Assembly (NCBI RefSeq): GCF_902713615.1
Contig: NC_052166.1
Location: forward strand, 1,922,001 to 1,986,000
Length of the DNA: 64,000 nucleotides
From: Scyliorhinus canicula
Lineage: Eukaryota
Reading direction: 5' to 3'
Made by a program: the position numbers and the translations under genes. Under the pieces are notes generated by a model. The model did not search any database and had not been told where the DNA came from. It saw nothing but the letters and a program-made list of their open reading frames with translations. Shown here one piece after another: positions 1 to 58,477 of the stretch (the stretch's first letter is position 1; the number at the start of each line of letters is the position of its first letter).

Positions 1-525
1 TAGTAAAACAGGGACAGAAGCAAAAGGAAGTAAGGGGGAAAGTGCAAGACAGAGAAGATGTAGTCAAAAATCAAAAAGGGCGACAGTACAAGGTACAGTG
101 CCTGAGGGAGCTACAGTGAATAGGCCCAGTAATACTAAAAGGAATAAAACTGAGATGTTAGATTCAAAACAGAGATAAAAAAACCAACATAAGTGTACTT
201 TACCTGAATGCTCGTAGTATTCGGAATAAAGTAAATGAGTTGATGGCGCAAATAATCGCGAATGACTGATTTAGTGGCCATTACCAAAAATGGTTAAAGG
301 GTGATCATGGAGTTAAATAGCCGATGGTATCAAACTATTCGGAAGGACAGAGTGGATGGTAAGGGATGTGGTGTAGCTCTGTTATTTAAGGATAACATCC
401 GGGCAATAGTAAGGGATGACATCGGTGCTATGGAGGATAAGGTTGAATCCTTTGGTGGAAATCAGGAATAGTAAGGCGAAAAAGTCACTGATAGGAGCAG
501 TCCTATCGGCCACCAAATAGTTAAC
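1..525 (+). mobile_element. CR1 LINE copy A, left part (ORF2 APE endonuclease N-terminus), split by the ERV
   Basis: Encodes LYLNARSIRNKVNELMAQ...RPPN; the reading continues at 13945 (SNVMVGQAINKEI). Confidence 0.85.
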
Positions 526-1715
526 TGAACGATCTTAGGATTTGAAGTTATTCAATTCAGGGTTACCGGTCGTTCTTGTACATTGCTGAAACTCAGTAGA
601 AATTCAAGTTAAAAACTTGTCAGGTGCAAATAAGAATTGTTTATTTGGAGTTCATTGGTTACAACTTGAAAATAATTTAAAAGGCTTTTTGTAGACAATT
701 TGATTTTTTCAAAGAATCACAGGAATTATCTTCTGAGACAACAGCTTGAACACAACTTTAAAAGTCAATGTCTGAAGTCAAAGTCTGAAAATGAAATATG
801 AATACAGAACTTTTTTCTAACTCTCTTCCTTCCTATCCTTTTCTGTCTACCTTCCTATCCTCTCTCAACTCTTTCTTTCTATCTCTCTGAACTCTTTCTT
901 TCTATCTCTCTGAACTCTTTCTTTCTATCTCTCAACTCTTTCTTTCTATCTCTCAAAATGGTGGCCAAATCGTCCATGGATATACTAATTCCTATCTGTC
1001 TTAAACGATCCGATCACATCCCAATATCGTCCTAATTGGTTTGAGTTAGACTCAAACACATTTGATTTGATAGAAAGCTGTCCATCTTCACTATGTAACA
1101 TTACTTCCAATTGTTGCCTGCTTGCTTATTTTTGCATGTTAAGAATGCGATATTGTGCTTTATCAAAACCAGCAAAAACTGGTCTAATGCTGACCTACCT
1201 ATTGCCACAATAGAGACCTCATGCTGACCTCACTACTGCACAATGGAGACCTTATGTTATCTCGTCATGTCACGCTGGGCATAACTCCGAAAATATAATT
1301 CTAACTGTCTATTTCAATTCAGTCTTTTATAAAATCGTTATAATGAGAATGTTGGAATCAAATATATATATTATATTTGATTCGATGTTTTAATTGTCCA
1401 TTTATTAAAAATAAGGCAACACAGTTTCAAGATATGTTTTAGCTTGTATAACTCATGGGATATGATTCACCTAATCTCGAGCGGTGTGAGAACCGTAGAA
1501 TCCTTCATTCCTACCCGTCGTTGCCATGGATTCAGCCCTTGTCCTTGGAGAAATGTAATGACCTTATCAGACTTCTGTGTTACTTTCAAAATCATGACCA
1601 TGAGATTTTGCAAAATATATGTTCTCTTTAATTTTAAAACTGGGAATTAATATTTATGCTTTAAGCAGCTATCTTTTTACCTATATTAAGTGTATTAGAA
1701 ATACCTGGCTCTACA
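526..1715 (-). repeat. ERV 3' LTR (~1190 bp)
   Basis: Direct repeat of 12652-13944; begins tgaacgatcttagg and ends ctctaca. Confidence 0.95.
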
Positions 1716-2065
1716 GTTGGCCCTTTGATAAATCGAAAGATCAAGTGAGATATATCAGAATAAGATAAAAGACATCATTACAGCGATAGGATAGGTAAAA
1801 GCGCAAAGAATACTCATTCATATTGTCATTGCAGATTTAAACAATAGAATGGACACTTAGCATTGCAACAACTATTTCAACAATAATCATTAAAATTCTT
1901 AAAGAATCATTATTACAAAATAACAATTAATAAATTAGTCAAATTTGATATTACAGATTCAGTATTAATAGATTATACAATAATTGATAATATTACGGTT
2001 AACATTTCAACAAAAGTATTTCACCTCAAATTCATCAATTGGGTGTGCAGTAGGGTTAGTGTGAA

Positions 2066-3361
2066 TCATTCTGACAGTTGGGTCCCCCTGTGTTTAGCGA
2101 ATAGTTCTTTGATGCACGTAGCACATTGGTATGTTATATAAATGATGAATCCAGCTACATAGGAGAATAGGATTATTCTCATTATGGACATTCCAGTGTG
2201 TCCAAATCACCCGCAATTTCTATCCCAGAGAGAGAAAACTGGGGTGGATCAAGTTTTTGATTTCTTTTTGGATATGTAATACCAAATCTTTAACTTCTTC
2301 AGAGTTATCGGGAATAAAAGTGCAACATTCTGCACCAATCAGGGCGCACGTGCCACCTTTTTCGGCTGGCACATAGTCGAGTGCCATTCGATTTTGTAAT
2401 ACCACGGTCAAATTGCTCGCATTTCGTCAGAGATTTTATCTAGGGCAGGTGACGGTGTAATCAGCTACATTTTGTACAATGGTTGTTATTTTATTCAACT
2501 TATTCTCCATCCTTCCCAATAGAAAGGAATGATTTTAGCATAAATGGCATCTCTAAAGGTGATGGAACGTTTTTTTCTTTGAACAGTCATTTCTGAAATA
2601 TGCAGGAGATTAGTCACATGATGAATGGCAGGTACCATGTACCCTAAATAGCAAGATCCTGACCAGGATCTTGGGAGCCAGGGATATGCTTTATCATCAC
2701 AAATAAAATAAGTTCCATTATAAGCAGAATATGAGTAAATATATTCTAAGAGCCATTGGTCTTCGAATGTTTTATTATTTGAGGTTAGGTATGCCTGTTA
2801 TCCTTGAGGACCGCATAACTCTTTCTAAGCGCTCGTTTGTGCATTTAAAGCTGTGTTAACATCTACATAGTTAGTACAATTACTATTACCCATTGGTATC
2901 CCTTTAGGGTCCTTACTGATGAGGTAAATAGATCCTTTTTGTTTAATATTAGTTGGGAGGTTAAGATGTTGAGGATTTTTGTCAGGGTTAAATTGAAGTT
3001 GGTGCCATCCTGAAAAGGTGTTTAGTAGATAGCCTGCAGATTTCCATAAGTTAATAGATTTTCGGATGTCAACCTGGTACCTTCCTTTTCCACATGAATA
3101 TGCTCCAGAACGGGTCACCACAGAGCAAGGGATGCTTTGATAGATGTACCATTCTGCTGTTTCTGAAGCATTAAAGGGAATAGTTAGAAAGGGAATACCC
3201 TCCCCTGAGTTAGTAGGGGTTGCAATGCATACCCAACAATTAGAAATGTTAAAGTTTTCAGCATAAATCTTAGATGTGTAAAGGAATGTGTTTTTATTCA
3301 TTTCTGATAAAACATTCACAAAGTCAATCAAATAACTGAAAATTAAAATTGCGGCAAACAT
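2066..3361 (-). pseudogene. env: Gamma-type envelope (SU+TM), frameshifted, ~430 aa
   Basis: Signal peptide MFAAILIFSYL; SU CWVC (CxxC); AYPWLPRSWSGSCYLG; furin site RKKR/S (~2566-2578); ISD LQNRMALD; CX6CC (CALIGAECC); TM helix IILFSYVAGFIIYITY; stop at 2066-2068. Confidence 0.9.
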
Positions 3362-3362
3362 T

Positions 3363-4255
3363 TTACTTGTACGCACGCTTCACGTGCGATGCGTGAATCC
3401 AAATTTTCTTTCCTTTTAACTTTACATCGGATTGGGCGGTGAGAAGGATTACGAGAGGACCTTCCCACCGATCCCAAAGGTTCCTTTTGCAGCTTTTTGA
3501 CGTACACTTCTTCACCGGGCACCAGGTCGTGCCCACCTTCCGGAGGATCGCCCCACACAGCGAACACCTGTTGAGAAGCAGAGCTAACAGCATTTGTTAG
3601 ATTTGGCAGTAAGACAGCAAAGCATCACTCATTAAATGACAGTCTGCTTTCCGCAAGTCAATAGTTCCTGGCAGAGACATTGGTCTGCCTGTGATGATTT
3701 CAAAAGGACTCAGGCCTGTTGTTCTGTTTGGTGTTGCTCTATTACTGCATAATACTATTGGCAAAGCGTGGACCCAATTCATGCCTTCCTGGCTGTATTT
3801 AGACAGTCTTTCTTTCAAAGTTCGATTCAAACGTTCCACTTGTCCTGATGATTGTGGATGATAAGGACAGTGTAAATTCCAGTTAATGTTTAGTAGTTTA
3901 CAGACTTCCCTACAAACAGCTCCTATAAAGTGGGTTCCATTGTCTGAGTCAATGCTAGCTGGTACCCCCCTTCTGGGAATAAAGTCTTTGCATAGCACTT
4001 TGTCTGTATGGGCAGCTGTCCCTCTTCTAGCTGGAGCAGCTTCCACCCATCTGGAGAATTTATCCACTATTACAAGGATGTCATTGTACTGTTGACATTA
4101 GGAAGAGTGATGTAATCTACTTGTAAGTCCTGGAATGGACCAGCATGAGCAGGAGCTCTTAATTGAGGCATTGATGTTATAGGACCCAAGTTATTCTTTT
4201 GACAGGTTACACATCGGTTGCTACCAATTGTGCATGTTTTTGAATCCTTTACCAC
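3363..4255 (-). pseudogene. pol: Retroviral integrase (frameshifted)
   Basis: CVTCQKNN zinc finger, DLQVDYI, DKFSRWVEA, SIDSDNGTHF, PQSSGQVERLN, C-terminal WEGP...WIHASHVK. Confidence 0.92.
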
Positions 4256-4279
4256 ACCAACTTCTATGGAATCAATCCA

Positions 4280-5247
4280 TCATTTGTTGAGGTGATATTG
4301 TCCCCAGGAAGGAATTTGTTGAGCTAAGAAGGGCATTAGTGATTGTGGTGCAACTGGTTTACAAGTTTGAACTGCTCTCCAAATTTCATCATCATACGGT
4401 TGAATACCTGATTCTAACCATGTCCATTTTTCTTCCTTTGTACAATCATTCTGCATTTCACGTAAATCATGTAATAAGGTGGTTACTCCCAATTTGTAAA
4501 TGTGACTGGATTCCTGATGCCACTGAGAGGCACAAAGGGAGGCAGCTTCCCTTGCTGCTTGGTCCGCAAGAGCATTTCCTCTTGCTTCCATAGTGTCCTC
4601 ATGAGTATGGGCTTTACATTTTAGAACTGATACTTCTTTGGGCAAGGTCATAGCTTCTAGAAGATCTTGTACTTCCTTTCCATTTCGGATAGGTGTACCT
4701 GCTGTTGTGAGAAATCCTCTTTTCTCCACAGATGGCCAAAATCATGTGCTATTCCAAAACCATATCTGGAGTCAGTATAGATGTTAGCAGTTTTATCTCT
4801 TGCCACATGACATGCTTCTGTTAGTGCCTTTAATTCGGCCTGCTGAGCTGATGTAGCTGGGGGCAAACTTCCTTCAGCTAATACTTCGTATGGGCTTCTG
4901 ACTGCCCACCCAGCTTTCCTGATACCCTTGTCAATAAAAGAGGAACCATCAGTGAATAAGATTAAATCTGGGTTCTGTAATGTAGTGGCTCTTCTTCTAC
5001 TAAGCGTACTTCTTCCATTTCCTCTATTATTTTCACACAGTCATACCCTTCTCTCTCTCCCTCCTCTTGTTCCTCGGGAAGCGGGAGCAAAGATGATGGG
5101 TTTACAGGACTGGCTTTGTGAAAATATAGGTTGGGAGCTTCCAAAACTGCTGTCCATCTAGTCCATCTAGCTGATGTAACTGTGACACTCTGTTCATAGA
5201 TAGTAGAGAATGGACTGAATGTGGACATTTAATGATTAACTTTTGGT
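4280..5247 (-). pseudogene. pol: RT connection/tether and RNase H (frameshifted)
   Basis: SAQQAELKAL, NIYTDSRY, ERGFLT, KCKAHT, RGNALADQAA. Confidence 0.9.
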
Positions 5248-5248
5248 C

Positions 5249-6703
5249 TAGAACATAGAACATTACAGCGCAGTATGGGCCCTTCGGCCCTCGATGTTGC
5301 GCCGACCTGTGAAACCATCTGAAGCCTATCTGACCTACACTATTCCATTTCATCCATATGTCTATCCAGTGACCACTTAAATGCCCTTAAAGTTGGCGCG
5401 TCTACTACTGTTACAGGCAGGACGTTCCACACCCCTACTACTCTCTGAGTAAAGAAACTGCCTCTGACATCTGTCCTATATCTACCACCCCTCAATTTAA
5501 AGCTATGTCCCCTCGTGTTGGTCATCACCATCCGAGGAAAGAGACTCTCACTGTCCACCCTATCTAACCCTCTGACTATCTTATATGTCTCTATTAAGTC
5601 ACCTCTCAGTCTTCTCCTCTCTAACGAAAACAACTTCAAGACCCTGAGCCTTTCCTCATAAGACCTTCCCTCCATACCAGGCAACATCCTAGTAAATCTC
5701 CTCTGAACTCTTTCCAAAGCTTCCACATCCTTCCTATAATGTGATGAACAGAACTGCACGCGGTACTCCAGGAGCGGCCGCACCAGAGTTATGTACAGCT
5801 GCAGCATGACCTTGTGGTTCCAAAACTCAATCCCCCTACTGATAAAGGCTAGCACACCATATGCCTTCTTAACAGCCCTATTAACCTGGGTGGCAACTTT
5901 CAGGGATTTATGTACCTGGATGCCGAGATCGCTCTGTTCATCTACACTACCAAGAATCTTGCCATTAGCCCAGTACTCTGCATTCCTGTTACTCCTTCCA
6001 AAGTGAACCACCTCACACTTTTCCGCATTAAACTCCATCTGCCACCTCTCAGCCCAGCTCTGCAGCTTATCTATGTCCCTCTGTATCCTATAACATCCTT
6101 CAGCACTATCCACAACTCCACCGACCTTCGTGTCATCTGCAAATTTACTAACCCATCCTTCTACACCCTCTTCCAGGTCATTTATAAAAATGACAAACAG
6201 CAGTGGCCCCAAAAACAGATCCTTGCGGTACACCACTAGTAACTGAACTCCAGGATGAACATTTGCCATCAACCACCACCCTCTGTCTTCTTTCAGCTAG
6301 CCATTACTGATCCAACCGCTAAATCACCTTCAATCCCATACTTCCTTATTTTCTGCAATAGCCTACCGTGGGGAACCTTATCAAACGCCTTACTGAAATC
6401 CATATACACCACATCAACTGCTTTACCCTCATCCACCTCTTTGGTCACCTTCTCAAAAACTCAATAAGGTTTGTGAGGCATGACCTACCCTTCACAAAAC
6501 CGTGTTGACTATCGCTAATCAACTTGTTCTTTTCAAGATGATTATAAACCCTATCTCTTATAACCTTTTCCAACGTTTTACCCACAACTGAAGTAAGGCT
6601 CACAGGTCTATAATTACCAGGGTTGTCTCTACTCCCCTTCTTGAACAAGGGGACAACATTTGCTATCCTCCAGTCTTCCGGCACTATTCCTGTCGACAAA
6701 GAC
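5249..6703 (-). mobile_element. 5'-truncated CR1 LINE inserted in ERV pol
   Basis: RT ORF 5340-6272 with SKFADDTK; 3' tail (GTTCTAT)n; same subfamily as the CR1 at 29679-39488. Confidence 0.92.
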
Positions 6704-8050
6704 CAGATTACCATTACAGCTCGACATGTAGCTTCATGGCTCGTAAACAACTGCCAAAGGCCAGTGCCACATTGTCAAGTTTAAGAGAATAGTACCAACT
6801 TGTCTTAACTGATCACCATGTCTTGAGCTAGTACTGCAGTCATGTAACCATCTCTTTCATGAACAACATGGTAAAAGGTTTTCCGTTGTTTGGAATACCT
6901 AAGGCTGGCGCTGAACACAGGACCTTTTTCAAATTCAGAATGATTGTTTCTGTTCAGAATTGAGTTTAATTTCATAGAATTTACAGTGCAGAAGGAGGCC
7001 ATTCAGCCCATCGAGTCCACCGGCTCTTGGAAAGAGGACCCTACCCAAGGTCAACAACTCCACCCTATCCCCATAACCCAGTAACCCCATAACCCAGTAA
7101 CCCACACCCAACACTAAGGGCAATTTTGGACACTAAGGGCAATTTTTCATTGTCCAATCCACCTAACCTGCACATCTTTGGACTGTGGGTGGAAACCGGA
7201 GCACCCGGAGGAAACCCACGCACACACGGGGAGGATGTGCAGACTCCGCACAGACAGTGACCAAGCCGGAATCGAACCTGGGACCCTGGAGCTGTAAAGC
7301 GATTGTGCTATCCACAATGCTACCGTGATCTCTTGATTTTCTGTTTCTTTTAAAAGATCATTCAATGGCTGGCATAACTGAGTATAAGAATCAATCCAAT
7401 TTCTGTTAAAATTAGAGTCCCAAGAAAGATCTGACTTCCTGTACAGTTGAGGGTTCTTTAGCTGCTTTGAGTAAGTTCCCTTTTGCCTTTGGAAATTTTC
7501 TGTCCCGAGTAAACAACTTCTTCCTGGGTAATTTGTGCTTTGGCAAAGCTAGCTTTGTGCCATTAGTACTGAGGTGGTTCAAGACCACCCGTAAGTCCTT
7601 TTCATGGTCATCTTTATTGATGGAGGCTAACAGAACATCATCTACATACTGAATACTGGTTGAAGGCAGATCAGGCAGTTGCCTGATGTGATTCTGCAGA
7701 GCCATGTGGTAAACAGCTGGGCTATTGTGAAAACCTTGCGGTAGTCTATTCCATGTGTACTGTTGCTGATTAACTGTAAAAGCAAACCATGGTTGTACTT
7801 GTTTAGCTAATGGTACTGACCAGAAGCCATTTGCCATATCAATGACTGAAAAACCATTGAAGGTCAGGGGTTAAAGAGTTAAAAATTGTAGACGGATCTG
7901 CCATTAAAGGAGCTTTTCTGACAATTAATTGATTTGCCTTTCTGTAGTCAATAGTAAGGCGCCATGTACCATTAGCCTTTTTCACAGGCCATACAGGGCT
8001 GTTGATGAACTGTGAATACGCACTAAATATCCCTTTCTTCAAGTTGTTTA
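6704..8050 (-). pseudogene. pol: Retroviral reverse transcriptase (frameshifted, interrupted by a SINE)
   Basis: NSPVWPVKK, WRLTIDYRK, VIDMANGFWSVP, LPQGFHNSP, QYVDD, RSFLGL, YYSLKLDNVA...CLRA. Confidence 0.93.
6972..7328 (-). mobile_element. HE1/V-SINE-like tRNA-derived SINE in ERV pol
   Basis: tRNA-like head with B box GGTTCGATTCC, V-domain core GTGCGTGGGTTTCCTCCGGGTGCTCCGG, CR1-like tail. Confidence 0.9.
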
Positions 8051-8141
8051 TTATAGGTAGAATACCTTGAATTGACGTTTGCTAATGGGTATTGTTTGGT
8101 ACAAGGTGGAGCTGATCCCATGAAAGTAACTGGTTCCATTT

Positions 8142-8662
8142 TCAAAAGACCACAATCATTTTTGTCAATTGCCCATATTGGATGATGTTGTATTTCATCT
8201 TTTTTATGTGTCTAATGGACCAGGTAATTTTCCCATTATTGAAGTTGAGTGAAGAATTTAGTTGTGATAAGATGTCCATACCTAGAAGTGCTTGTGTTAC
8301 CAGACCTACCCATATTGACGCTATCAGTTGATGTGGTCCAAATTCTAAGAGCAGTGGTTTAGGTCTTCCGAAGAGGGGCAGAGTCTCCTCCTGCAGAAAA
8401 AGCTTCAATTTTCTCTGGTTAGGGGAAAGAAAGCAGCATTCTGTTCAGTAACACAGGTATGTTCAGCTCCAGTATCAAATAAAAAATCGATATGAATACC
8501 TCCCACTCTTAATGAAATATATAATCCATAATTTTTCTGCTGCAAAAGTGCATGTAGAGAGAAATGGAGAGAATCATCAAGAGTGGGGTCTAGTAGTTTT
8601 TTTGAATGATCATACAGAGAACGTCTTTGAGCTGGAGGACAGCTGTTTAACATTTCATTCAT
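8142..8662 (-). pseudogene. pro: Retroviral aspartic protease
   Basis: FLFDTGAEHTCV active site, followed by a LLGMDILSQL-type motif. Confidence 0.88.
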
Positions 8663-8687
8663 AGCATTGTTATCATCGTGTAGATTC

Positions 8688-8841
8688 CTACGTGGGTACG
8701 GTTCGTCCTCACGGGGTAAGATTCCTCCCTACATGGGTAAGATTCTGCCCTATGTGGGTAAGGTTCCTCCCTACATGGGTACGATTCTTCCCTACGTGGG
8801 TAAGGTTCCTCCCTACATGGATAAGGCTCCTCCCTACATGG
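8688..8841 (-). repeat. 21-bp coding tandem repeat (~7 copies, CREE(P/S)YP) at the Gag C-terminus
   Basis: gggtaag-type unit recurs at 8714, 8735, 8756, 8777, 8798 and 8819. Confidence 0.9.
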
Positions 8842-10063
8842 AAATGGCTGGGAGGTTTTAGAATCCCTGTACGTAAATCTGGGTCTGTCTTGTTGGAACG
8901 TAACCCTAGGTGCATCTTGTTTGTGCGCACTACGTGGTTGACCATGAGGTGGAAATGTATTGTAGTGAACATTGTCTACTTCATTATCATCTCTCGAATC
9001 CATCCGTGGTTTAAGATAGCATTTCGCCATCCAGTGTCCTATTTTATTGCAGAAAAGATATTGTGGTATTTTTTCCTTACGTGATTTTAATGGAGCCAGG
9101 GTACATGTTTGCCCTGAATCTTGTGGTGGTGTTTTAGTCACTGCTGATGAGCTTGTCTGATTGTGCGAACCACAATCTATCTGAATGCACCAGTCAACTA
9201 TGTCTCGGTATGTGCCAATTTTGGCCCAAGATGGTAAAACCAAATTCAAGGCATCAGAAACTTCAGGTTTAACACCGGCTACAAAAACCGTTTTTAAAGT
9301 GCTTGCATCCCATGTGTCAGTTTCCTCTGCGAGTGTCATTCCCGAATATTCATCCAAGTCTGTAAAAATCTTTCCTCAATATCCTGAATATCTTCATTAC
9401 TTTTTGAATGCAAGATGTGATCTTAGACCAATCGGTCCTCGGGGGGGCGAAATGTTAATAGCCAATCCCTGATTGCTAGCCAACCATCTTCTAAATTTTG
9501 CAAATCGTCTTCAAGGGCAAATTCCACCTCAGTTCTAAGGGTGAAATTACACGAGTACCTAGCATGATAGTCAGAACTTGTACTCCATCAAATGGGTGGA
9601 GACTGTAAATGGATTTTAATCTGTGAATTCCATCCCATGTGGACATACCACCCTTTTTAGGGTGTGGAAGATTTTGGACCATTCGTCAATTTTTGCAGGC
9701 TCTGCTGGTTCATGAGTCCATTGATGATCAAATATGTTTCTAGTGATAGTTTCACCTTCTTCCTCTTTTTTGCTTCCAACTCTAACCCGTTTGCGTTTTA
9801 AAAGGGGCTAGTTGAATTAATTTAGTATTACGCTTTGTAGGAACACTATCTTCGTCTGATTCATTTGGCAGAGGAATTAATTTATTCTTGACACTTGATC
9901 TCGGCTGTGCATTTGCCGATTGTGCCACTAGGTGGGGTGCGTGGGCTTCTTGTTGAGTTTGTGTTACTTCAGCTGCTGTTTGAATCTGAGCTGTGCTTTG
10001 CTTCAAACAGTCTTTTAGGATCGCAGTTTTCAGTGGCATTGTTTATATCTTTTTCTAAAACAT

Positions 10064-10720
10064 GGGCGAGATTCTCCGCAAATGCGGAGAGTCGTAAGGC
10101 TGCCTTGAAACTGGCCGTGGTTCACGGCAGCCTTCACGCCCGTTCCCGGGACCCGATTGTCCCCCCCCCAATCGGGGCTAGGAGCGGGACCCCATGACCC
10201 GCGGCTGGCGTCTGTATGACGTCAGCCGCGCATGCGCAGGTTGGAGCCGGCTCCAACCCGCGCATGCGCGGGTGATGTCATAACGCCATTGTTCCGCATT
10301 TCTCCACCATCCACAAGATATGGCGGCTTGATCTTGTCGGGCGGCAGAGGGGAAATAATGCGTCCCTTTTGGACGCAGGCCCGACGATCGGTGGCACCGA
10401 TTGTGGGCCTGTCCCCTCCCGAGCACAATGGTGGTGCTTCTGCCCCAAACGGGCCTCTGGATGCCCCAAACGGGCATCCAGCGCCCGTTTTTACAACGGC
10501 AGCGGTCAGGTGTGTTTGCTGCCGTGAAAAAATGGGCGTAAAGGCCCGGCTGCTCGGCCCATCGTCTGCGGAGAATCGCCGCTCGCCGTAAAAAACGGCA
10601 AGCGCCGATTCGTGACGTGGGTCGGGCGAGGGTGGGGGAGAATAGCGGGAGGGCGTAAAAATGTCGGGAGACCCTCCCGCTATTCTCCCAACCGGCATGG
10701 GCAGCGGAGAATCGCAGCCC
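10064..10720. mobile_element. GC-rich MITE-like element with imperfect TIRs inserted in gag
   Basis: Starts gggcgagattctccgc and ends gcggagaatcgcagccc; abrupt GC shift; flanks rejoin into a gag repeat unit; no clear TSD. Confidence 0.75.
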
Positions 10721-11960
10721 ATATCTTTCTTCGATTAACTTGCAATTTTCAAATTCAATTCGCTCAGTTTTTGATTGCAACCTTTGGTATCTTGACTCCA
10801 CTTCAAAAATTTGATTTTGTAATTCTGCTATTTGAATAGATAACTTCTGGAGTTTAGAGGTTTTGTTTTGCAATTCTGTTCCCATTTTGTCATAATGTTC
10901 AAGTTTAGATTCTGCATCTTGCAATTCTCTTTCTAAAACACATTTTTGTTCGATTAACTTGCACTTTTCAAATTCAATTCGCTCAGATTTTGATTGCAAC
11001 TTTGGTATTTTGACCTCCACTTCAAAATTTGATTTTGTAATTCTGCTATTTGAGAAGATAACTGCTGGAGTTTAGAAATTTTGTTTTGCAATTCTGTTCC
11101 AATTTCGTCATAATGTTCAAGTTTTGCCTTTGCATCTGCAATTCTCTTCTAAAACACATTTTTCTTCAATTAACTTGGAATTTTCAAGTTCAGTTTGATC
11201 AGTTTTAATTGCAAACTGTTGGTATTTTGACTCTACTTCAAAAATTTGATTTGGAACTCTATTTGAAAAGATAACTGCTGGAGTTTAGAAGTTTTGTTTG
11301 CAATTCTGTTCTAAGTTCATCGTCCTGTTCAAATTTGGATTTTACATCTCGCAATTCTCTTTCTAAAACGCATTTTTCTTCATTAACTTGGAATTTTCAA
11401 GTTCAATTTGCTCAGTTTTTGATTGCAGCTGTTGGTATTTTGATTCCACTTCAAAAATTTGATTTTGGAATTCTGCTATTGAACAGATAACTGTTGGAAT
11501 TTGGCATCATCCTGTTCAAATCTGAATTTTGCATCTTGCAATTCTTTTCTAAAACACATCTTTCATCAATTAACTTGGAATTTCAAATTCAGTTCGCTCA
11601 GTCTTTAATTGCAACTGTTTGTATTCTAACTCCACTTCAGAAATTTGATTTTGGACTTCTGCTATTTGAACACATAACTGTTGGAGTTCAGCATCATCAT
11701 GTTCAAATTTGAATTTTGCATCTTGTAATTCTCTTTCTAAAACACATTTTCCTTTGATTAACTTGCAATTTTCATGTTCAATTTGCTCAGTTTTTAATTG
11801 CAACTGTTGGTATTTTAACTCCACTTCATAAATTTGATTTTGGACTTCTGCTATTTGAATAGGCAACTGCTGGAGTTCAGAGATTTTGTTTTCCAAATCA
11901 GTTCTAATTTCATCGTCAGATTCAAGTTTGGATTTTGCATCTTGCAATTCTTCAACAACT
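10721..11960 (-). repeat. ~6 tandem 186-219 bp units encoding 62-73 aa coiled-coil repeats in Gag
   Basis: Unit anchors near 10751, 10970, 11186, 11399, 11585 and 11774; peptide ELQDAxxKLE...IQIAELQNQIxEVE...LQxKTERIEFENCKLIE. Confidence 0.9.
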
Positions 11961-12633
11961 GCAATTAGTTGGTCTTTAGTGGACCTATACTCATGATTAG
12001 TTTTATTTTTAGTAATTATCTCTTGCTGTCTGCGTAATTGTCCAATAATTGCCAGGGACCATTTAACACGTTCTGCACTGTGCAATCGTGTGCATTTTCC
12101 CCATGCTCTTGATATTATCAAAGGACCACTGTCCTCTGGGGATATTATACTTTGATTCAATTTTTCTTGAGGTTTCACATAGGTCAAATTGTTTACGAAA
12201 TAAAGACCCAAAATCCCCCAACATATCTTCAACGGAAACATCTGGTATCCCAGATCCTCCTTTTATCGTCATAGGGAGTAATTTTCTGCCTTCTAAAGGG
12301 TCTAAATCTATACTTTCATCTGGATCAGCCATAAATTCAACCTTTCACTTAACTTTTTGTGTGTAGGCTGTGTTAGTCTCAACAACCGGCACCTGATTGA
12401 TTTAATACCGTCTATAAAATGTCCTTTTCAGGGGTCAAAGCACTGATTGATGCGACTTTAAGACTTTTAATGGGTGAAAGAGATATTTCTTACCCCAGTC
12501 TAGCCGTGGGTTCCGACTGTCTTCTGGGTCTCCTCCGATTATTCCCGAAGCTTCCGTCGTTGCCTGGTCCTCCTCCGATTTCTCACGAAGTTTTCCGAAC
12601 CTCTCCGAAGGTCGTATCAGAACTCCTCCCCCG

Positions 12634-12648
12634 CTGCCGACTACGCCA
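12634..12648 (-). promoter_or_regulatory. Primer-binding site, tRNA-Ser
   Basis: Minus strand TGGCGTAGTCGGCAG, 3 nt after the 5' LTR, complementary to the 3' end of vertebrate tRNA-Ser (…CTGCCGACTACG-CCA). Confidence 0.9.
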
Positions 12649-12651
12649 AGT

Positions 12652-13944
12652 TGAAGGATCTTAGGATTTGAAGTTAATTCAATTCAGGGTTACCGGTCGT
12701 TCTTGTACATTGCTGAAACTCAGTAGAAATTCAAGTTAAAAACTTGTCAGGTGCAAATAAGAATTGTTTTATTTGGAGTTCATTGGTTACAACTTGAAAA
12801 TCATTTAAAAGGCAGTTTGTAGACAATTTGATTTTTTTCAAAGAATCACAGGAATTATCTTCTGAGACAACAGCTTGAACACAACTTTAAAAGTCAAAGT
12901 CTGAAGTCAAAGTCTGAAATGAAATATGAATACAGAACTTTTTTCTAACTCTCTTCCTTTCCTTTCCTTTCCTTTTCTATCTAACCCTTCCTGTCTCTCT
13001 CAACTCTTTCTTTCTATCTCTCTCAACTCTTTCTTTCTATCTCTCTCAACTCTTTCTTTCTATCTCTCTCAACTCTTTCTTTCTATCTCTCTCAACTCTT
13101 TCTTTCTATCTCTCTCAACTCTTTCTTTCTATCTCTCTCAACTCTTTCTTTCTATCTCTCTCAACTCTTTCTTTCTATCTCTCAAATGGTGGCCAAATCG
13201 TCCATGGATATACTATTTCATATCTGTCTTAAGCGATCCGATCACACCCAATATAATCATAATTGGTTTGAGTTAAACGCAAACACATTTGATTTGATAG
13301 CAAGCTGTCCATCTTCACTATGTAACATTACTTCCAATTGTTGCCTGCTTGCTTATTTTTGCATGTTAAAGAATGCGATATTGTGCTTTATCAAAACCAG
13401 CAAAAACTGGTCTAATGCTGACCTACCTATTGCCACAATAGAGACCTCATGCTGACCTCACTACTGCAACAATGGAGACCTTATGTTATCTCGTCATGTC
13501 ACGCTGGGCATAACTCCGAAAATATAATTCTAACTGTCTATTTCAATTCAGTCTTTTATAAAATCGTTATAATGAGAATGTTGGAATCAAATATATATAT
13601 TATATTTGATTCGATGTTTTAATTGTCCATTTATTAAAAATAAGGCAACACAGTTCAAGATATGTTTTAGCTTGTATAACTCATGGGATATGATTCAACC
13701 TAATCTCGAGCGGTGTGAGAACCGTAGAATCCTTCATTCCTACCCGTCGTTGCCATGGATTCAGCCCTTGTCCTTGGAGAAATGTAATGACCTTATCAGA
13801 CTTCTGTGTTACTTTCAAAATCATGACCATGAGTTTTGCAAAATATATGTTCTCTTTAATTTTAAAACTGGGAATTAATATTTATGCTTTAAGCAGCTAT
13901 CTTTTTACCTATATTAAGTGTATTAGAAATACCTGGCTTCTACA
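12652..13944 (-). repeat. ERV 5' LTR (~1293 bp)
   Basis: Direct repeat of 526-1715; candidate TATA (TATAAAAG, minus, ~13553-13560) and AATAAA (minus, ~12768-12773). Confidence 0.95.
12994..13184. repeat. 23-bp VNTR inside the LTR (8 copies in the 5' LTR, ~4 in the 3' LTR)
   Basis: (ctctctcaactctttctttctat)n, with caactc at a 23-bp period from 13001 to 13162. Confidence 0.9.
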
Positions 13945-16481
13945 GTAACGTTATGGTGGGGCAGGCAATAAACAAAGAAATAACTGATACATGTAGAAAT
14001 GGTACAGCAGTTATCATGGGGGATTTTAATCTATATGTCGATTGGTTTAACCAGGTCGGTCAAGGCAACCTTGAGGAGGAGTTTATAGAATGTATTTGCG
14101 ATAGTTTCCTAGAACAGTATGTAATGGAACCTATGAGGGAACAAGCGTTCCTAGATCTTGTCCTGTGTAATGAGACAGGATTGATTCATGATCTCATAGT
14201 TAGGGATCCTCTCGGAAGGAGCGATCACAATATGGTTGAATTTAAAATACAGATGGAGGGTGAGAAGGTAAAATCAAATACTAGTGTTTTGTGTTTAAAC
14301 AAAGGAGATTACAATGGGATGAGAGAAGAACTAGCTAAGGTAGACTGGGAGAAAATACTTTATGGTGGAACAGTTGAGGAACAATGGAGAACCTTCCAAG
14401 CGATTTTTCACAGTGCTCAGCAAAAGTTTATATCAACAAAAAGGAAGGACGGTATAAAGAGGGAAAATCGACCGTGGATATCTAAGGAAATAAGGGAGAG
14501 TATCAAATTGAAGGAACAAGCATACAAAGTGGCAAAGATTGGTGGGAGACTAGAACACTGGGAAATATTTAGGGGGCAATAGAAAGCTACTAAAAAAGCT
14601 ACAAATTAGAGTAAGATAGAGTATGAGGGTAAACTTGCTCAGAGTATAAAAACAGACAGTAAACTTTTTACAAATATATAAGACAAAAAAGAGTGGCTAA
14701 GGTAAATATTGGTCCTTTAGAGGATGAGAAGGGAGTTTTAGTAATGGGAGATGAGGAAATGGCTGAGGAACTGAACAGGTTTTTGGGTCGGTCTTCACAG
14801 TGGAAGACACAAATAACATGGCAGTGACTGTTAGAAATGAGGCTATGACAGGTGAGGACCTTGAGAGGATTGTTATCACTAAGGAGGTAGTGATGGGCAA
14901 GCTAATGGTGCTAAAGGTAGACAAGTCTCCTGGCCCTGATGAAATGCATCCCAGAGTGCTAAAAGAGATGGCTAGGGAAATTGCAGATGCAATAGTGATA
15001 ATTTACCGAAATTCACTAGACTCAGGTGGTCCCGGTGGATTGGAAATTAGCAAATGTGACACCACTGTTTAAAAAAGGAGGTAGGCAGAGAGCAGGAAAT
15101 TATAGGCCAGTGAACTTAACTTCGGTAGTAGGGAAGATGCTGGAATCTATCATCAAGGAAGAAATAGCGAGGCATCTGGATAGAAATTGTCCCATTGGGC
15201 AGACGCTGCATGGGTTCATAAAAGGCAGGTCGTGCCTAACCAATTTAGTGGAATTTTTTGACGACATTAACAGTGCAGTAGATAACGGGGAGCCAATGAA
15301 TGTGGTATATCTGGATTTCCAGAAAGCCTTTGATAAGGTGCCACACAAAAGGTTGCTGCATAAGATAAAGATGCATGGCATTAAGGGTAAAGTAGCAGCA
15401 TGGATAGAGGATTGGTTAATTAATAGAAAGAAAAGAGTGGGGATTAATGGGTGTTTCTCTGGTTGGCAATCAGTAGCTCGTGGTGTCCCTCAGGGATCCG
15501 TGTTGGGCCCACAATTGTTCACAATTTACATAGATGATTTGGAGTTGGGGACCAAGGGCAATGTGTCCAAGTTTGCAGATGACACTAAGATGAGTGGTAA
15601 AGCGAAAAGTGCAGAGGATACAGGAAGTCTGCAGAGGGATTTGGATAGGTTAAGTGAATGGGCTAGGGTCTGGCAGATGGAATACAATGTTGACAAATGT
15701 GAGGTTATCCATTTTGGTAGGAATAACATCAAACTGGATTATTATTGAAACAATAAAATATTAAAGCATGCTGCTGTGCAGAGAGACCTGGGTGTGCTAG
15801 TGCATGAGTCACAGAAAGTTGGTTTACAGGTGCAACAAATGTAATTTTGTCCTTCATTGCTGGAGGAATGGAGTTTAAGACTAGGGAGGTTATGCTGCAA
15901 TTGTATAAGGTGTTAGTGAGGCCACACCTGGAGTATTGTGTTCAGTTTTGGTCTCCTTACTTGAGAAAGGACGTACTGGCACTGGAGGGTGTGCAGAGGA
16001 GATTCACTAGGTTAATGCCAGAGCTGAAGGGGTTGGATTACGAGGAGAGGTTGAGTAGACTGGGACTGTACTCGTTGGAATTTAGAAGGATGAGGGGGGA
16101 TCTTATAGAAACATATGGAATTATGAAGGGAATAGATAGGATAGATGCGGGCAGGTTGTTTCCACTGGCGGGTGAAAGCAGAAATAGGGGGCATTGCCTC
16201 AAAATAAGGGGAAGTAGATTTAGGACTGAGTTTAGGAGGAACTTCTTCACCCAAAGGGTTGTGAATCTATGGAATTCCTTGCCCAGTGAAGCAGTTGAGG
16301 CTCCTTCATTAAATGTTTTTAAGGTAAAGATAGATAGTTTTTTGAAGAATAAAGGGATTAAGGGTTATGATGTTCGGGCCGGAAAGTGGAGCTGAGTCCA
16401 CAAAAGATCAGCCATGATCTTTTTGAATGGTGGAGCAGGTTCGAGCGGCCAGATGGCCTACTCCTGCTCCTAGTTCTTATA
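13945..16481 (+). mobile_element. CR1 LINE copy A, right part (ORF2 APE-RT and 3' tail)
   Basis: ORFs 13953-14582, 15026-15748 (SKFADDTK), 15847-16395; tail ctcctgctcctagttcttat. Confidence 0.92.
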
Positions 16482-16686: not shown

Positions 16687-19330
16687 TTAGTGTGGTCCTC
16701 GGTGACTCCAGGAGCGTGCTGAAATACTCTTGATCCTCAGGCATGGGGAGGGGGAGGACTGATGGTCCCGGGGGTTGCTGTTGTGTGCGTCAGGGAAGGG
16801 GAGGGTGGCGCAGGGCCGGAGGGGTGTGTGTGTGGAACCTGCTGGTGCCAGGTCCTTGAGGGAGACAGTATCTTGGCAGCCGTCGGGGTACGCTACGTAG
16901 GCATACTGGGGGTTGGCGTGGAGTAATTGCACCCTTTCAACCAACGGGTCCGCCTTGTGGAGTCGTATGTGCTTACGGAGGAATACGGGTCCTGAAGCTG
17001 CAAGCCAAGTCGGGAGCGACACCCCGGAGGTGGACTTCCTGGGAAAGGTAAAGAGACGTTAATGGGGTGTGTCGTTAGTCGCAGTGCATAGGAGTGACCG
17101 AATGGAGTACAGTGCATCGGGGAGGACTTCCTGCTGGCGGGAGGCCGGGAGATTTCTGGACCATAGGGCCAGCTGGATGGCCATCCATACCGTCATGTTC
17201 TCCCTCTCCACCTGCCCAATTCCCAGGAGGTTATAGCTGGTCGCCCTGCTCGATACCCCTGCGGAGCAGGAACTGACGGAGCTCATTGCTCATGAGTAAG
17301 GATCCCCTGTCGCTGTGGATGTAGGTGGGTAAGCCGAACAGAGGGAAGATGGTGTTGAGGGCTTTGATGACGGTGGCAGACGTAATGTCGGGGCATGGGA
17401 TGGCGAAGGGGAACCTGGAGTACTCATTGACCACACTGAGGAAATACGTGTTACGGTCGGTGGAGGGGAGGGGCCCTTTGAAATCCACGCTGAGGCGTTC
17501 AAAGGGGCGGGAGGCCTTCACCAGGCACGCACGGCCCGGCTGGTAAAAGTGCGGTTTGCACTCCGCACAGACCTGGCAGTCTCTGGTGATTGCCCTGACT
17601 TCCTCGACGGAGTCGGGCAGATTGCGGGCCTTGGTGAAATAGTACACCCGTGTGACTCCCAGGTGACGAAGTTTGTCTTGCAGAGTCCGGAGTCTGTCCA
17701 CCTGTGCACTGGCACATGTACCTAGGGATGGGGCATCGGGGGGCTCGTTGAGCTTGCCGGGACGATACAAAATCTCGTAGTTGTAGGTGGAGAGCTTGAT
17801 CCTCCACCTCAAGATTTTATCATTTTTAATCTTGCCCCGCTGTGTGTTAAACATGAAGGCTACCGACCATTGGTCAGCGAGGAGAGTGAATCTCCTACCG
17901 GCCAGGTAATGCCTCCAATACTGCACAGTTTCAACGATGACTTGGGCCTCTTTTTCGACGAAGGAGTGCCGAGTTTCGGAGGCATGAAGGGTTCATGAAA
18001 AGAATGCCACGGGCCTGCCTGCCTGGTTGAGGGAGGAGGCTAAATCAACGTCTGATGTGTCGCTCTCAACTTGAAATGGTAACGTCTCGTTGACTGCATG
18101 CCTTGATGATGTCGGCCTTAATACGGGTTGAAGGCCTGGTGAGCCTCGGCCGTCAGGGGGAACAGAGTGGACTGAATGAGTGGGCGGGCCTTGTCCGCAT
18201 AATTTTGGACCCACTGGGCGTAGTAAGAAAAGAACCCCAGGCAATGTTTGAGGGCCTTGGGGCAGTGGGGGAGGGGGAATTCCATGAGGGGGTGCATGCG
18301 GTCAGGATCTCCGTTCTGGACCGCATAGCCGAGGGTGGCTAAGCGGTTCGTGCTGAACACTCACTTCTTGTTATAAGTTAGGTTGAGAAGAGTGGGGGTG
18401 TGGAGGAATTTGGCAAGGTTGGCATCATGGTCCTGCTCATCGTGGCCGGAGATGGTGACATTGTCTAGGTACAGGAAAGTGGCCCGCAGCCTGTACCGGT
18501 CGACCATTCGGTCCATCACCCGTTGGAAGACCGAGGCCCAATTTGGTGACGCCGAAGGGAACCCTAAGAAAATGGTAGCGGCGGCCATCTGCCTCAAAGG
18601 CAGTGTATGGGCGGTCCGTTTACGGATGGGGAGCTGGTGATAGGCGGATTTTAGGTCCACAGTTGAGAAGACCCGGTACTGTGCAATCTGATTGACCATA
18701 TCAGATATGCGTGGGAGGGGGTACGCGTCGAGCTGCGTGTACCGATTGATGGTCTGGCTGTAGTCCACGACCATTTTGTGTTTCTCCCCAGTTTTCACCA
18801 CTACCACTTGGGCTCTCCAGGGTCTGTTGCTGGCCTCGATGATGCCTTCCAGAAGCAGCCGCTGGACCTCGGACCTGATGAAGGTCCTGTCCTGGGCTCT
18901 GTACCGTCTGCTCCTGGTGGCGACGGGTTTGCAATCCGGGGTTAGGTTTGCAAATAGGGAGGTGGGTCGACCTTTAGGGTCGTGAGGCCGCACACAGTAA
19001 GGGGTGGTGGGGCCCGCCGAATTGCAATGTTAGGCTCTGCAGGTTGCACTGGAAGTCCAGGCAGAGTAGCAGGGCAGCTCAGAGGTTGGGGAAGACGTAG
19101 AGGCACAAGCCGCTGAATTCTATGCCCTGGACAGTGAGCATGACTATACAGTACCCCCGGATCACTACGGAGTGGGACCCAGAGGCCAGGGAGATTCTCT
19201 GGTTGGCGGGGTGTACCGTGAGGGAGCAGCGCCTTACCGTATCGGGGTGGATGAAGCTTTCTGTGCTCCCGGATTCCAGCAGAAGGAGATCTCGTGCCCA
19301 TCTATCTTCACACTTGTAGAGGCGGTGGCT
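16687..19330 (-). pseudogene. pol: Gypsy pol (PR-RT-RNaseH-IN), frameshifted
   Basis: VDLKSAYHQ, YLDNVTISG, FQVESDTS, WRHYLAGRRF, SVDFKGPLP, IHSDRG, GQVERE. Confidence 0.88.
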
Positions 19331-20401
19331 AGATTGTGCGGGCGAGACTGGTCAATCGTGACCGAGGTGAGGCGCGACTGGTCGTTGTTGGTGTCAGACG
19401 ATGGGGTGCTCGGGGGGCATGGGTCCTGGTACGATGGTGGCGCCCACGTGCCATGGGGGAGACAAGATGGCGGCGCCTGATGATCCTGAGGAGGACAAGA
19501 TCGCGGCGTCCAGGGGCCGCACGTGGTGGGGGTTGAACAAGATGGCAGAGCCCTTGGGCCGCACGTGGTCCGAGGAGGGGAAGATGGCGGCGCCCACTGG
19601 CCGTGCGTGGTCCAAGGAGGGGAAGATGGCGATGCCCAATGTCTGTACGCGGGGGGGGGGGTGTCGGAGCGATAGCAGCGACTGAGCGGGCCTGGCACAC
19701 CGCAGCAAAGTGCCCCTTCTTGCCACAGGCCTTGCAAAAAGCACTCCGGGCCGGGCAGCATTGGCGGGGGTGTTTTTGCTGCCCACAGAAGTAACATCTG
19801 GGGCCCCTGGGGTTGGCTGGCTGGCGCGTGGCACAGGCGTAGGATTGGTTGAGTGAGGTCCCCGGTGGGTCGGCCGTCTGCATTGGAGGGGTGGGCCACG
19901 CGGCCAGGTGTGTAGGCCTGGATATTGCGCGAGGCGACCGTCATTGATAGCGCCAGCTTTTTGGCTGCCGCGGATGTGATCTGACCCTACCCCCGTAACT
20001 AAAGCGTCTCGCATGAGTAGATTCGAGTGTTCCGTGACGGCCTGACAGTCACAGTCTCTGACCAGGGGAATTAGAGCATGCCAGAAATCTTCTATTGACT
20101 CACCAGGGAGTTAACTACGAGTGGAAAGGATGTGTCTGGCAAAGAGCGTGTTCGTCCGCTGGGCGTAGTTTTCTTTCAGTAGCGCCATGGCATCGTCGTA
20201 GGTCAGTGCATCCTGGATAAGCGGAAAAACGTTGGAGCTGAGCTGCGTGTAGAGGATCTGGATCTTCTGAGCTTCCGGAATTGGATCTGGTGCAGACCTA
20301 ATGTAGGCTTTGAAACAGGCTAGCCAATGTTCAAAGTCCTTTTTGGCTTTGCTTGATTGCGGTTCCAGCTGCAGGCGATCTGGCTTGATGAGGAGGTCCA
20401 T
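19331..20401 (-). pseudogene. gag: Gypsy gag
   Basis: MDLLIKPDRLQL...; CYFCGQQKHPRQCCPARSAFCKACGKKGHFAAVC. Confidence 0.85.
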
Positions 20402-25050: not shown

Positions 25051-25223
25051 TGAAAATGAAATGAAAATCGCTTATTGTCACGAGTAGGCTTCAAATGAAG
25101 TTACTGTGAAAAGCCCCTAGTCGCCACATTCCGGCGCCTGTTCGGGGAGGCTGTTACGTGAATCGAACCGTGCTGCTGGCTTGCTTTCAAAGCCAGCGAT
25201 TAGCCCTGTGAGCTAAACAGCCC
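25051..25223 (-). mobile_element. Short tRNA-derived SINE with (TTTCA)n tail
   Basis: Minus strand ggggctgtttagctc...ggttcgattc...cttttcacagtaacttcatt...(tttca)n. Confidence 0.7.
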
Positions 25224-25319
25224 CTATATTGAGGTGTCACTCCATCCCCAAGTTGATACTGGAGGATTCAGTGATGGTAATGCCATTGAATAGCAATTGG
25301 GGATGGTTAGATCCTCTCT

Positions 25320-31886: not shown

Positions 31887-32732
31887 ATGGTCGGTACTCG
31901 GAGAGGGGCGACAAAAAAAGCGGCAGCAGCTCCCCAAAAAAAGCGGGGGAAGAGGACCAAAATGGCGGCCGGTGGTGCACTAGAAGATTGGAGAAAATGG
32001 GCGGAGGAGCAGCAGGCCGCTCTCCTCCGGTGCTTTACGGAGCTGAAAGTGGAACTCTTAGAGTCCATGAACGCGACGACCACAAGGCTGATGGGGGCCC
32101 AGGCGACCCAAGAGGCATCGATAAGAGAGCTGCAGCAGGAGATGGCGGTGAGGGAGGAGGAAGCCACGGTCCTCGTGGGAAAGGTGGAGGTGCACGAGGC
32201 ACTCCACCTGAAATGGCAGAGCCGCTTTGAGGAGCTGGACACGCGAATGAGGCGGAAGAACTTGAGGATCCTGGGCCTAGCAGAAGGCCTGGAGGGGCCT
32301 GATCTCCCGAAATATGTAGCGGAGATGTTGAGCTCCCTGATGGGAGAGGGGGCCGGTCCATCGCCCCTGGAGCTGGAAGAAGCATATCGGGTCATGGCTA
32401 GGCGGCCTAGGGCAAACGAGCCCCCGAGGGCGGTGCTGGTGCGGTTCCAGCGTCTCTGCGATCGGGAGAAAGTGCTGAGGTGGGCCAAGAGGGAGAAAAG
32501 CAGCAAATGGGAGAATTCGACGGTGCGGATATATCAGGACTGGAGTGCGGAGGTGGCAAAGCGGCGGGCCCGGTTTAACCGAACGAAGGCGGTGCTGCAC
32601 GCAAAAAGGATCAAGTTTGGAATGCTGCAGCTAGCGCGCTTGTGGGTCACCTACAAGGACCAGCACCATTACTTTGAGACCCCAGAGGAGGCATGGACTT
32701 TTGTTCAGGAGGAAAAGCTGGACCTGAACTAG
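31887..32732 (+). CDS. L1 ORF1p (coiled coil, RRM-like and C-terminal domains), open frame
   Basis: Uninterrupted; RRKNLRILGLAEGLE, PRAVLVRF, RIYQDWS motifs. Confidence 0.85.
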   Translation: MVGTRRGATKKAAAAPQKKRGKRTKMAAGGALEDWRKWAEEQQAALLRCFTELKVELLESMNATTTRLMGAQATQEASIRELQQEMAVREEEATVLVGKVEVHEALHLKWQSRFEELDTRMRRKNLRILGLAEGLEGPDLPKYVAEMLSSLMGEGAGPSPLELEEAYRVMARRPRANEPPRAVLVRFQRLCDREKVLRWAKREKSSKWENSTVRIYQDWSAEVAKRRARFNRTKAVLHAKRIKFGMLQLARLWVTYKDQHHYFETPEEAWTFVQEEKLDLN

Positions 32733-57246: not shown

Positions 57247-57366
57247 GTGAAGACGGCTGCTTCTCCCTTCACTCAACAAGGTCTAATCTAGAGCAAAAGA
57301 CGGGAGAAGTATTCATTGTATCAAATATATTGATATTAAAACTGCTGCAAAAGAATTTCAAAGATG
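57247..57366 (+). other. Candidate host exon (unidentified gene)
   Basis: ttctgtcag acceptor, gtcagt donor, 120 nt open in phase 1. Confidence 0.25.
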
Positions 57367-58245: not shown

Positions 58246-58477
58246 TGCGGCACGTGGTTAGATACAGAGGAAAGCTCCCTCAACACTCCCAGGACAGGTA
58301 CAGCACGGGGTTAGATACAGAGTAAAGCTCCCTCTTCACTGTCCCCATCAAACCCTCCCAGGACAGGTACAGCACAGGGTTAGATACAGAGTAAAGCTCC
58401 CTCCACACTGTCCCCATCAAACACTCCCAGGACAGGTACAGCACAGGGTTAGATACAGAGTAAAGCTCCCTCTACAC

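Follow-up and report, generated by a model that had tools for sequence, protein, structure and literature searches.

Endogenous retroviruses (ERVs) that combine a class III reverse transcriptase (RT) with a gamma-type Env are already in print, namely XtERV-S (Yedavalli 2021, PMC8278194) and ERV-SA.a-Ppe, the latter from a study that also reports anamniote ERVs with gamma-type Env, Scyliorhinus lineages among them (Chen 2021, bioRxiv). In the elephant shark, lineage I of the CmiERV elements clusters with the snakehead retrovirus, SnRV (Han 2015, PMC4422223). For the catshark Scyliorhinus canicula, 21 Env loci have been described in which a gamma-type Env stands beside RT, RNase H and integrase, and the adjoining Pol is said to descend from an ancestral epsilonretrovirus (Proudley 2026, bioRxiv 10.64898/2026.05.06.723177). 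RNase H and integrase have been replaced repeatedly in retroviruses (Wang & Han 2021), a conclusion shared by Zheng 2022, and both works point to unstable nodes in RT phylogenies. We analysed 64,000 nucleotides of S. canicula (NC_052166.1, positions 1,922,001 to 1,986,000), referred to as the window. At 526-13944, on the minus strand, it carries a full provirus with the order long terminal repeat (LTR), primer binding site (PBS), gag, pro, RT, tether, RNase H, integrase, env, polypurine tract and LTR, enclosed by a target-site duplication.

The existence and anatomy of this provirus are confirmed. We suggest that it represents an unnamed fish lineage, present in shark, gar and teleosts, that branches just below crown class I (gamma- plus epsilonretroviruses), and we regard this placement as somewhat more likely than not. 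The foamy- and snakehead-like motifs of its RT are best read as ancestral states that would have changed later in crown class I. A fuller version of the proposal is more tentative, and we would not yet call it probable: a fish-wide sister of all class I, possibly of classes I and II, uniting a class III-like RT, a Ser-type PBS and a 5-bp target-site duplication with an integrase and an RNase H of class I type and with -1 frameshifting, some of its members having been active recently. The placement is new and unproven.

The wide host range emerges from protein searches. The RT search gave 5 matching proteins among 309 candidates and the profile search 268 matches among 7998, of which the best 120 were listed; among the matches listed, the family occurs in Astyanax, Coilia, Alosa, Cirrhinus and Lepisosteus. 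At an identity of at least 47% to the relative P0002, the family comprises 46 of the 265 stored proteins. Between the provirus and P0002 the identity is 48% in the protease, 62% in the RT, 64% in the tether and 70% in both RNase H and the integrase core, and gar and teleost relatives are in general about 50-70% identical to the provirus. The original prediction had proposed a basal and possibly unnamed elasmobranch lineage. Its depth and its position outside the epsilonretroviruses proper hold, but the restriction to elasmobranchs does not, as relatives in gar and teleosts make the lineage fish-wide. Pattern matches in viral_contigs (55) and metagenome_contigs (89) were considered as related loci and none was confirmed.

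Two observations on the relatives deserve mention. The family member P0007 belongs to a 90% cluster of 3937 sequences, which amounts to massive amplification in the genomes of some fishes, and its RT motifs match by eye those of the carp element cy_ca_ERV4. A second unnamed clade with a class III-like RT (P0060, P0090, P0114 and P0178; 99/94 in the 57-row RT tree described below) possibly marks another step along this stem lineage; the RNase H of P0060, from Pimephales, scores 82 bits with the provirus and branches next to class I.

Judged from the sequence, only the motifs of the RT fingers and palm look class III. All four motifs listed in the original prediction (NSPVWPVKK, DMANGFWSVP, LPQGFHNSP and YVDD) are present, and against PDB the RT core scores 83 bits with foamy chains versus 75 with murine leukaemia virus (MLV), a slight lead that corresponds to what had been noticed there. 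The longer RT-RNase H region of P0002 matches MLV at 444 bits versus 210 for foamy chains. Reference retroviruses were taken from viral_contigs, where 66 of 72 loci, several of them duplicates, gave a Pol frame, and their types were assigned by motifs and lengths. For every Pol domain the top-scoring reference is an epsilon- or gammaretrovirus. For the RT, the scores of the provirus are 151-159 bits with epsilon, 145 with snakehead-type, 104-115 with gamma and 92-109 with foamy references. Downstream the gap is wider: the tether scores 76-91 bits with epsilon/gamma, 50 with snakehead-type and 22-39 with foamy references, RNase H 118-154, 46 and 12-33, and integrase 118-139, 85 and 40-58, respectively. 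In sliding windows, 7 of 11 in the RT lean to class III-type rows, most strongly at NSPxWP, while 7 of 10 in the tether, 8 of 8 in RNase H and 8 of 9 in integrase lean to class I.

Other marks of the classes are mixed. The RNase H and integrase types, a GPY/F-like motif, a single knuckle (one or two being usual for class I) and the lack of a dUTPase, for which Pfam scans gave no match in either the provirus or P0002, all agree with class I, and P0002 has an MLVIN_C match above the cut-off. According to Chong 2014 (Table 1), the knuckle and the GPY/F-like motif are ERV1 marks and a 5-bp target-site duplication is an ERV3/4 mark; the provirus has the first two and probably the third. Gag-Pol readthrough and a 4-bp duplication, also expected of class I, are not seen in this one broken copy, where no in-frame stop precedes the protease and the duplication is best read as 5 bp.

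Phylogenetic trees place the family more precisely. The RT tree has 57 rows: 38 proteins chosen from the 265 stored ones, 18 of the reference frames (66 in all) and the provirus, read with X at its breaks. Both the family and crown class I (plus II) are clades with support 100/99, the family lies outside the crown, and a branch with 98/99 support unites the two to the exclusion of snakehead-, ERV-L/S-, foamy- and loki-type rows. The labels ERV-L/S-type and loki-like are our own, given by motif in the former case and by tree position in the latter. The same split is found in all four variants (LG+G4, FastTree, class II and ERV-L/S rows removed, far outgroups removed) and in a 61-row tree that holds no class II or foamy rows and for which 2 of 63 rows were dropped for coverage. 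The provirus RT is thus outside the crown at 92-100 support in all six completed full-length RT trees. It does not group with the rows presumed to be of ERV-L/S type, it is outside the foamy clade (four mammalian foamy rows, no fish row of the foamy-like FLERV type), and it is apart from the snakehead-type rows in the 57-row tree and its variants. Nor is it inside the epsilon clade; in the approximately unbiased (AU) test on the RT, a clade of family and epsilonretroviruses has p=0.041, and a grouping of the family with class I is not rejected (p=0.108). That the RT does not fall firmly within the epsilonretroviruses is in line with the original prediction.

Downstream of the RT a similar position is found. 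Taken by itself, the core of the integrase yields an identical order, with 98/95 separating the family from class III-type rows and 92/78 from the crown. In trees of tether, RNase H and integrase combined, the family sits at the root of class I (93-94), and the RNase H tree places it among epsilon-like rows (85). For the three domains together, the AU test rejects the family with class III-type rows (p=0.00026); the best tree in that run has the family as sister to gamma plus epsilon, with a support of 44. The original prediction of a class III, spuma- or ERV-S-like Pol therefore fails for tether, RNase H and integrase, which favour epsilon/gamma over snakehead-type and foamy references.

Several results weigh against a position just below class I. 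The RT core alone gives no resolved placement, and for the family with class III-type rows the AU test on the RT gives a marginal rejection with 57 rows (p=0.040) and no rejection with 61 (p=0.158); on integrase alone, the family with group IV types is likewise not rejected (p=0.127). The branch under the crown is 0.28-0.43 in the RT and near zero (0.07) downstream, as an RT swap would give. Because class II is a long branch nested within class I in the RT tree, a position below class I and one below classes I and II are both open. [quoted passage not shown] Finally, the published tree of Xu 2018 (PMC6001957) has the gar and carp members last in the block of clade Huo, as far as the tip order of an RT tree can tell.

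The long RT branch is one reason to consider an ancient recombinant within pol, in which clade Huo contributed the RT fingers and palm along with class III-like cis elements, and the thumb, tether, RNase H and integrase are of epsilon-like origin, so that the intermediate RT position would be the average of two histories. The sliding windows, the foamy lead of the RT core in PDB and the repeated replacement of RNase H and integrase in retroviruses (Wang & Han 2021) are all consistent with such an event, as are the Ser PBS, 3-nt spacer, weak polypurine tract, coiled-coil Gag and Env, which resemble by eye those of the SnRV-like CmiERV lineage I. However, the RT core alone joins no class III-type clade, the integrase alone is also outside the crown, and both halves of Pol yield the same best topology. 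We consider this recombinant unlikely, though it is the strongest of the alternatives. More doubtful is an assignment to clade Mu, for instance to one of the Pol-LE/LGE clades of Chen 2021, which would make the provirus a common class I ERV of epsilon affinity whose RT evolves slowly. Walleye-type references are top for RT and RNase H and near the top for the tether, the RNase H tree agrees, and Proudley 2026 gives the Pol next to S. canicula Envs an origin of this kind. Against it stand the RT position outside the crown, the AU result for the epsilon clade, the lack of any accessory open reading frame (ORF) seen in the provirus and the 75 codons ahead of the protease Asp, which hold no in-frame stop, while 4 of 4 references examined have one just before Pol. 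A class III ERV-S- or SnRV-like element with an acquired gamma-type env, as originally predicted, is very improbable: its RT motifs, Ser PBS and 5-bp duplication, the listing of its relatives with clade Huo in a published RT tree and the 61-row AU test speak for it, yet it is refuted for Pol as a whole by the AU test on the downstream domains and survives only for the RT palm. An RNase H with 46 bits to snakehead-type versus 147-154 to epsilon references, and a knuckle and missing dUTPase unlike XtERV-S, also count against it.

If, as we suggest, the family branches just below class I, its Env calls for no special event. Since Pol is class I-like, the env swap that had been postulated is unnecessary for a gamma-type Env. 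The CxxC, immunosuppressive domain (ISD) and CX6CC reported earlier are present as CWVC, LQNRMALD and CX6CC, and with the furin site RKKR and a transmembrane (TM) anchor they complete the set of gamma-type features. The spacing noted earlier is also confirmed, i.e. pol TAA, one base, env ATG. A search with the surface subunit (SU) gave two matching proteins among 192 candidates, from S. canicula (91%) and S. torazame (77%). Over the whole env, the provirus is 91.6% identical (406/443) to the S. canicula Env P0266, which has a Pfam TLV_coat match and syncytin-1 as its best PDB match. One acceptor-like splice site for env was found, at 3568. By description, the catshark syncytin-like Env candidates of Proudley 2026 probably overlap this family.

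Gag is less easily recognised. One zinc knuckle is present, as predicted, although its first Cys is missing in this copy, and the C-terminal piece falls with zf-CCHC clusters of the ESM Atlas at 0.96. A Pfam scan of Gag found no capsid family, and the ESM Atlas gave nothing at 0.9 or above for the coiled coil. This bears on annotation: 2 of the 21 shark Env loci were called domesticated as Gag was undetected (Proudley 2026), and because Pfam finds no capsid family in the Gag described here, such loci may include ordinary proviruses of this family. Coiled-coil-like Gag repeats are also seen by eye in CmiERV lineage I, and lokiretroviruses carry an SMC-like gene (Wang & Han 2021), resemblances to the coiled coil of the provirus that need not reflect homology.

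At the gag/pro junction there is a candidate -1 ribosomal frameshift signal which, from its sequence, has about an even chance of being real; it is new and unproven. The heptamer A AAA AAC is in phase with the knuckle frame, and the protease is in the -1 frame. A UAG stands one codon past the heptamer, and an 8-nt spacer separates the heptamer from a 14-bp stem that begins at 8587, whose stability (z=-4.4) is equalled in 0 of 200 shuffles. The heptamer pattern occurs 31 times in the internal region, and just two of these sites fold more strongly downstream; both lie in the insert resembling a miniature inverted-repeat transposable element (MITE). Three family proteins extend upstream to this point, and two of them have F/K-K-L, as such a heptamer would be read in the -1 frame, 38 residues before the protease Asp (42 in the provirus), whereas none of 12 proteins from outside the family has it in an equivalent window. 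The four references with an in-frame stop just before Pol are walleye-type, snakehead-type and two gamma. On the other side, at least 12 of 789 windows of the element fold more stably than this stem. In this copy two stops shut the knuckle frame 45-57 nt ahead of the heptamer, and the protease frame runs through that site without interruption; the phase of the heptamer is therefore not to be taken at face value. The evidence for frameshifting thus comes from one broken DNA copy and from the proteins of relatives.

The LTRs measure 1191 and 1293 nt, in agreement with the 1.2-1.3 kb first estimated. The difference stems from a 23-nt array with 4.6 versus 8.6 units. Their alignment has 1168 matches and 19 mismatches (1187 aligned bases) with 16 gaps, a Kimura two-parameter distance of 0.016. 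Transversions make up 14 of the mismatches, and of 13 one-base gaps 10 are located in runs, a pattern suggestive of assembly error; such errors are not uniform, as is shown by an L1-like frame of 987 codons in another part of the window, used as a control. Dating from the LTRs was judged unreliable, with 37 Myr at the shark rate assumed by Han and 3.7 Myr at a mammal rate, and any such date is an upper bound as some indels may be assembly errors. The PBS lies 3 nt past the 5' LTR, and we take it to be of tRNA-Ser type, as predicted. A tRNA-Ser(TGA) found by ARAGORN at 25144-25224 was rejected as its partner, as its 3' end does not match; it has no standard 3' end and is probably the head of a tRNA-derived short interspersed element (SINE). 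The target is the endonuclease part of a plus-strand CR1 long interspersed element (LINE). The two target-site copies differ by one base at this single locus, and a 5-bp duplication is probably the right reading, being the most parsimonious (one change, where 4 or 6 bp need two).

Taken together, the active ancestor of this decayed, multi-copy and simple provirus would have primed its minus-strand DNA on tRNA-Ser. Genomic RNA would have yielded a Gag of about 1000 residues, with a coiled-coil N-terminus and one knuckle, and a Gag-Pro-Pol, the latter probably by -1 frameshifting at A AAA AAC. A disulphide-linked gamma-type Env would have been made from a spliced RNA, and integration would have duplicated 5 bp of the target.

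This copy is dead, and no function for the host is evident. At least 19 frameshifts (compensated ones uncounted) and one stop are found in pol, and nine frameshifts and one stop in env. Three nested insertions account for about 2470 of the 13419 nt. This decay was absent from the original description. Contigs from sequencing runs bridge the nested CR1 in 4 of 4 runs and the nested SINE in 3 of 4, so copies or alleles without these insertions exist. Two runs tentatively taken for RNA span the region, which is no evidence of expression. The coordinates are collected below.

Features of the provirus, its target site and the insertions nested in it (window coordinates)
Feature	Position	Strand	Remarks
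Left target-site copy GTTAAC	520..525		one base longer than the right copy
3' LTR	526..1716	-	1191 nt, TG...CA
Weak polypurine tract	1717..1730	-	TCAAAGGGCCAAC, ahead of LTR TG
env, gamma-type	2007..3361	-	~450 codons; broken
Env features		-	CWVC ~3238, furin RKKR ~2578, ISD ~2399 (LQNRMALD), CX6CC ~2348, TM anchor ~2194
Integrase	3363..4330	-	zinc domain, DDE core, C-terminus with GPY/F-like motif; stop codon 1 nt ahead of env ATG
RNase H, gamma/epsilon type	4550..4985	-	PDB matches 9/9 MLV/XMRV RNase H
Tether (connection) domain	6712..6969, continuing 5180-5255	-	
Nested CR1 fragment in tether domain	5256..6711		matches a further CR1 copy of the window at 96%
Nested SINE in RT/tether	6970..7326		12 related pieces elsewhere in the window
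Reverse transcriptase	7327..8200	-	Pfam RVT_1 83 bits; NSPVWP starts 8003, YVDD ~7640
Protease, retropepsin type	8200..8595	-	DTG 8468-8476; weak Pfam RVP/Asp_protease_2 matches
Candidate -1 ribosomal frameshift signal	8500..8602	-	heptamer A AAA AAC at 8602-8596; putative function
gag	8600..12332	-	~1000 codons without insert; capsid-like region
Gag 21-nt repeat	8687-8841	-	
Gag degenerate knuckle, single	~9019-9060	-	
GC-rich MITE-like insertion in gag	10063..10719		imperfect terminal inverted repeats
Gag N-terminal coiled-coil repeats	~10720-11960	-	187-218-nt units (62-73 residues)
Primer binding site, presumed tRNA-Ser type	12631..12648	-	3 nt after 5' LTR; TGGCGTAGTCGGCAG
5' LTR	12652..13944	-	1293 nt, TG...CA; AATAAA at 12773
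Right target-site copy GTAAC	13945..13949		CR1 frame continues in the flank to the right

The rest of the window holds other repeats. By eye, the ORF list shows remnants of a Ty3/gypsy element at 17231-20110 on the minus strand, namely gag knuckle, RT, RNase H and integrase. On the plus strand there is a near full-length L1/Tx1-like LINE at 31767-37871, with ORF1 and the 987-codon open stretch of ORF2, and a 312-codon frame at 40503-41441 that resembles by eye a Penelope-type RT fragment. Arrays of a 69-nt tandem unit in both orientations form long inverted repeats at 57326-59993. A Rfam scan at gathering thresholds of window positions 1-30000 gave no matches.

The family matters as retrovirus classes are defined by the RT, the deep nodes of which are unstable, and it shows that filing by RT motifs or by the RT alone can mislead. 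Ancestral RT motifs beside class I downstream enzymes offer a direct test of the proposal by Wang & Han that the ancestor of gamma- and epsilonretroviruses replaced its integrase. If the placement is right, such a sister lineage would order the assembly of these viruses, RNase H and integrase coming first and the change of the RT motifs later. Gag/pro frameshifting, if true, would be unexpected beside class I, in a lineage surrounded by readthrough users: readthrough is listed for gamma, epsilon, SnRV, SSSV and the zebrafish element ZFERV, and frameshifting for alpha, beta, delta and lenti (2026 review, PMC13517186).

Among described systems, several are clearly different. Foamy viruses and FLERVs are set apart by the knuckle and gamma-type Env of the provirus. 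Lokiretroviruses are excluded by an Env that is not like the F protein of Mononegavirales and an RT that is not sister to all retroviruses, and the crocodilian and turtle ERV4, which lacks a zinc finger and GPY/F, by the presence of both, the trees holding no named ERV4 row. ERV-Spuma.0-Sca (Song 2023) is not the same element, with a different layout of 9220 nt, an 866-nt LTR and env 124 nt after pol. The hagfish ERV-Epsilon.0-Ebu was rejected as a relative; it has a Ser PBS, yet by eye ordinary class I RT motifs. The accessible parts of Song 2023, Naville 2016, Blanco-Melo 2024 and PMC12690878 contain nothing closer to the provirus, and the literature searched, which included few subscription journals, has no naming, no sister-to-class I placement and no frameshift for the lineage.

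XtERV-S (Yedavalli 2021) shares with the provirus the Ser PBS, the 5-bp duplication, a class I env and an env start at the pol stop, but differs in having a dUTPase after integrase, no Cys-His box, YIDD and an in-frame TGA readthrough. Epsilonretroviruses of the walleye type (L054, L026 and L043) have the highest RT and RNase H scores and a tether and integrase of the same class I type, whereas the gamma-type Env, the Ser PBS, an RT outside their clade and the lack of any accessory ORF or readthrough stop seen distinguish the provirus. Closer in its cis elements is CmiERV lineage I: the PBS of the provirus, TGGCGTAGTCGGCAG, equals the first 15 nt of that of CmiERV scaffold 2, with an identical 3-nt spacer and, by eye, a comparably weak polypurine tract. 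By eye, its Gag also has a coiled coil and one CCHC, its RT reads NSPIWP and DISNGFW, and its gamma-type Env has similar SU blocks; its RNase H (VYIDGSS...WSDSAYV) is snakehead-like, unlike that of the provirus. The joint occurrence of a class III RT, gamma-type Env and Ser PBS, emphasised in the original prediction, is already seen in CmiERV, and its RT and Env pairing is known from anamniotes. Nor was the family wholly undescribed, as bony-fish members are included in published datasets, le_oc_ERV2 and cy_ca_ERV4 in Xu 2018 (PMC6001957) and Mamb.ERVi.1 and Eluc.ERVi.2 in Wang & Han 2023 (PMC10435555), neither named nor described as a lineage in the portions accessible. These four share the RT motifs DMANGFWSVP or DMSNGFFSVP and NGTWRLT, and by eye they match P0040 and the P0007 clade, which group with the provirus at 100/99.

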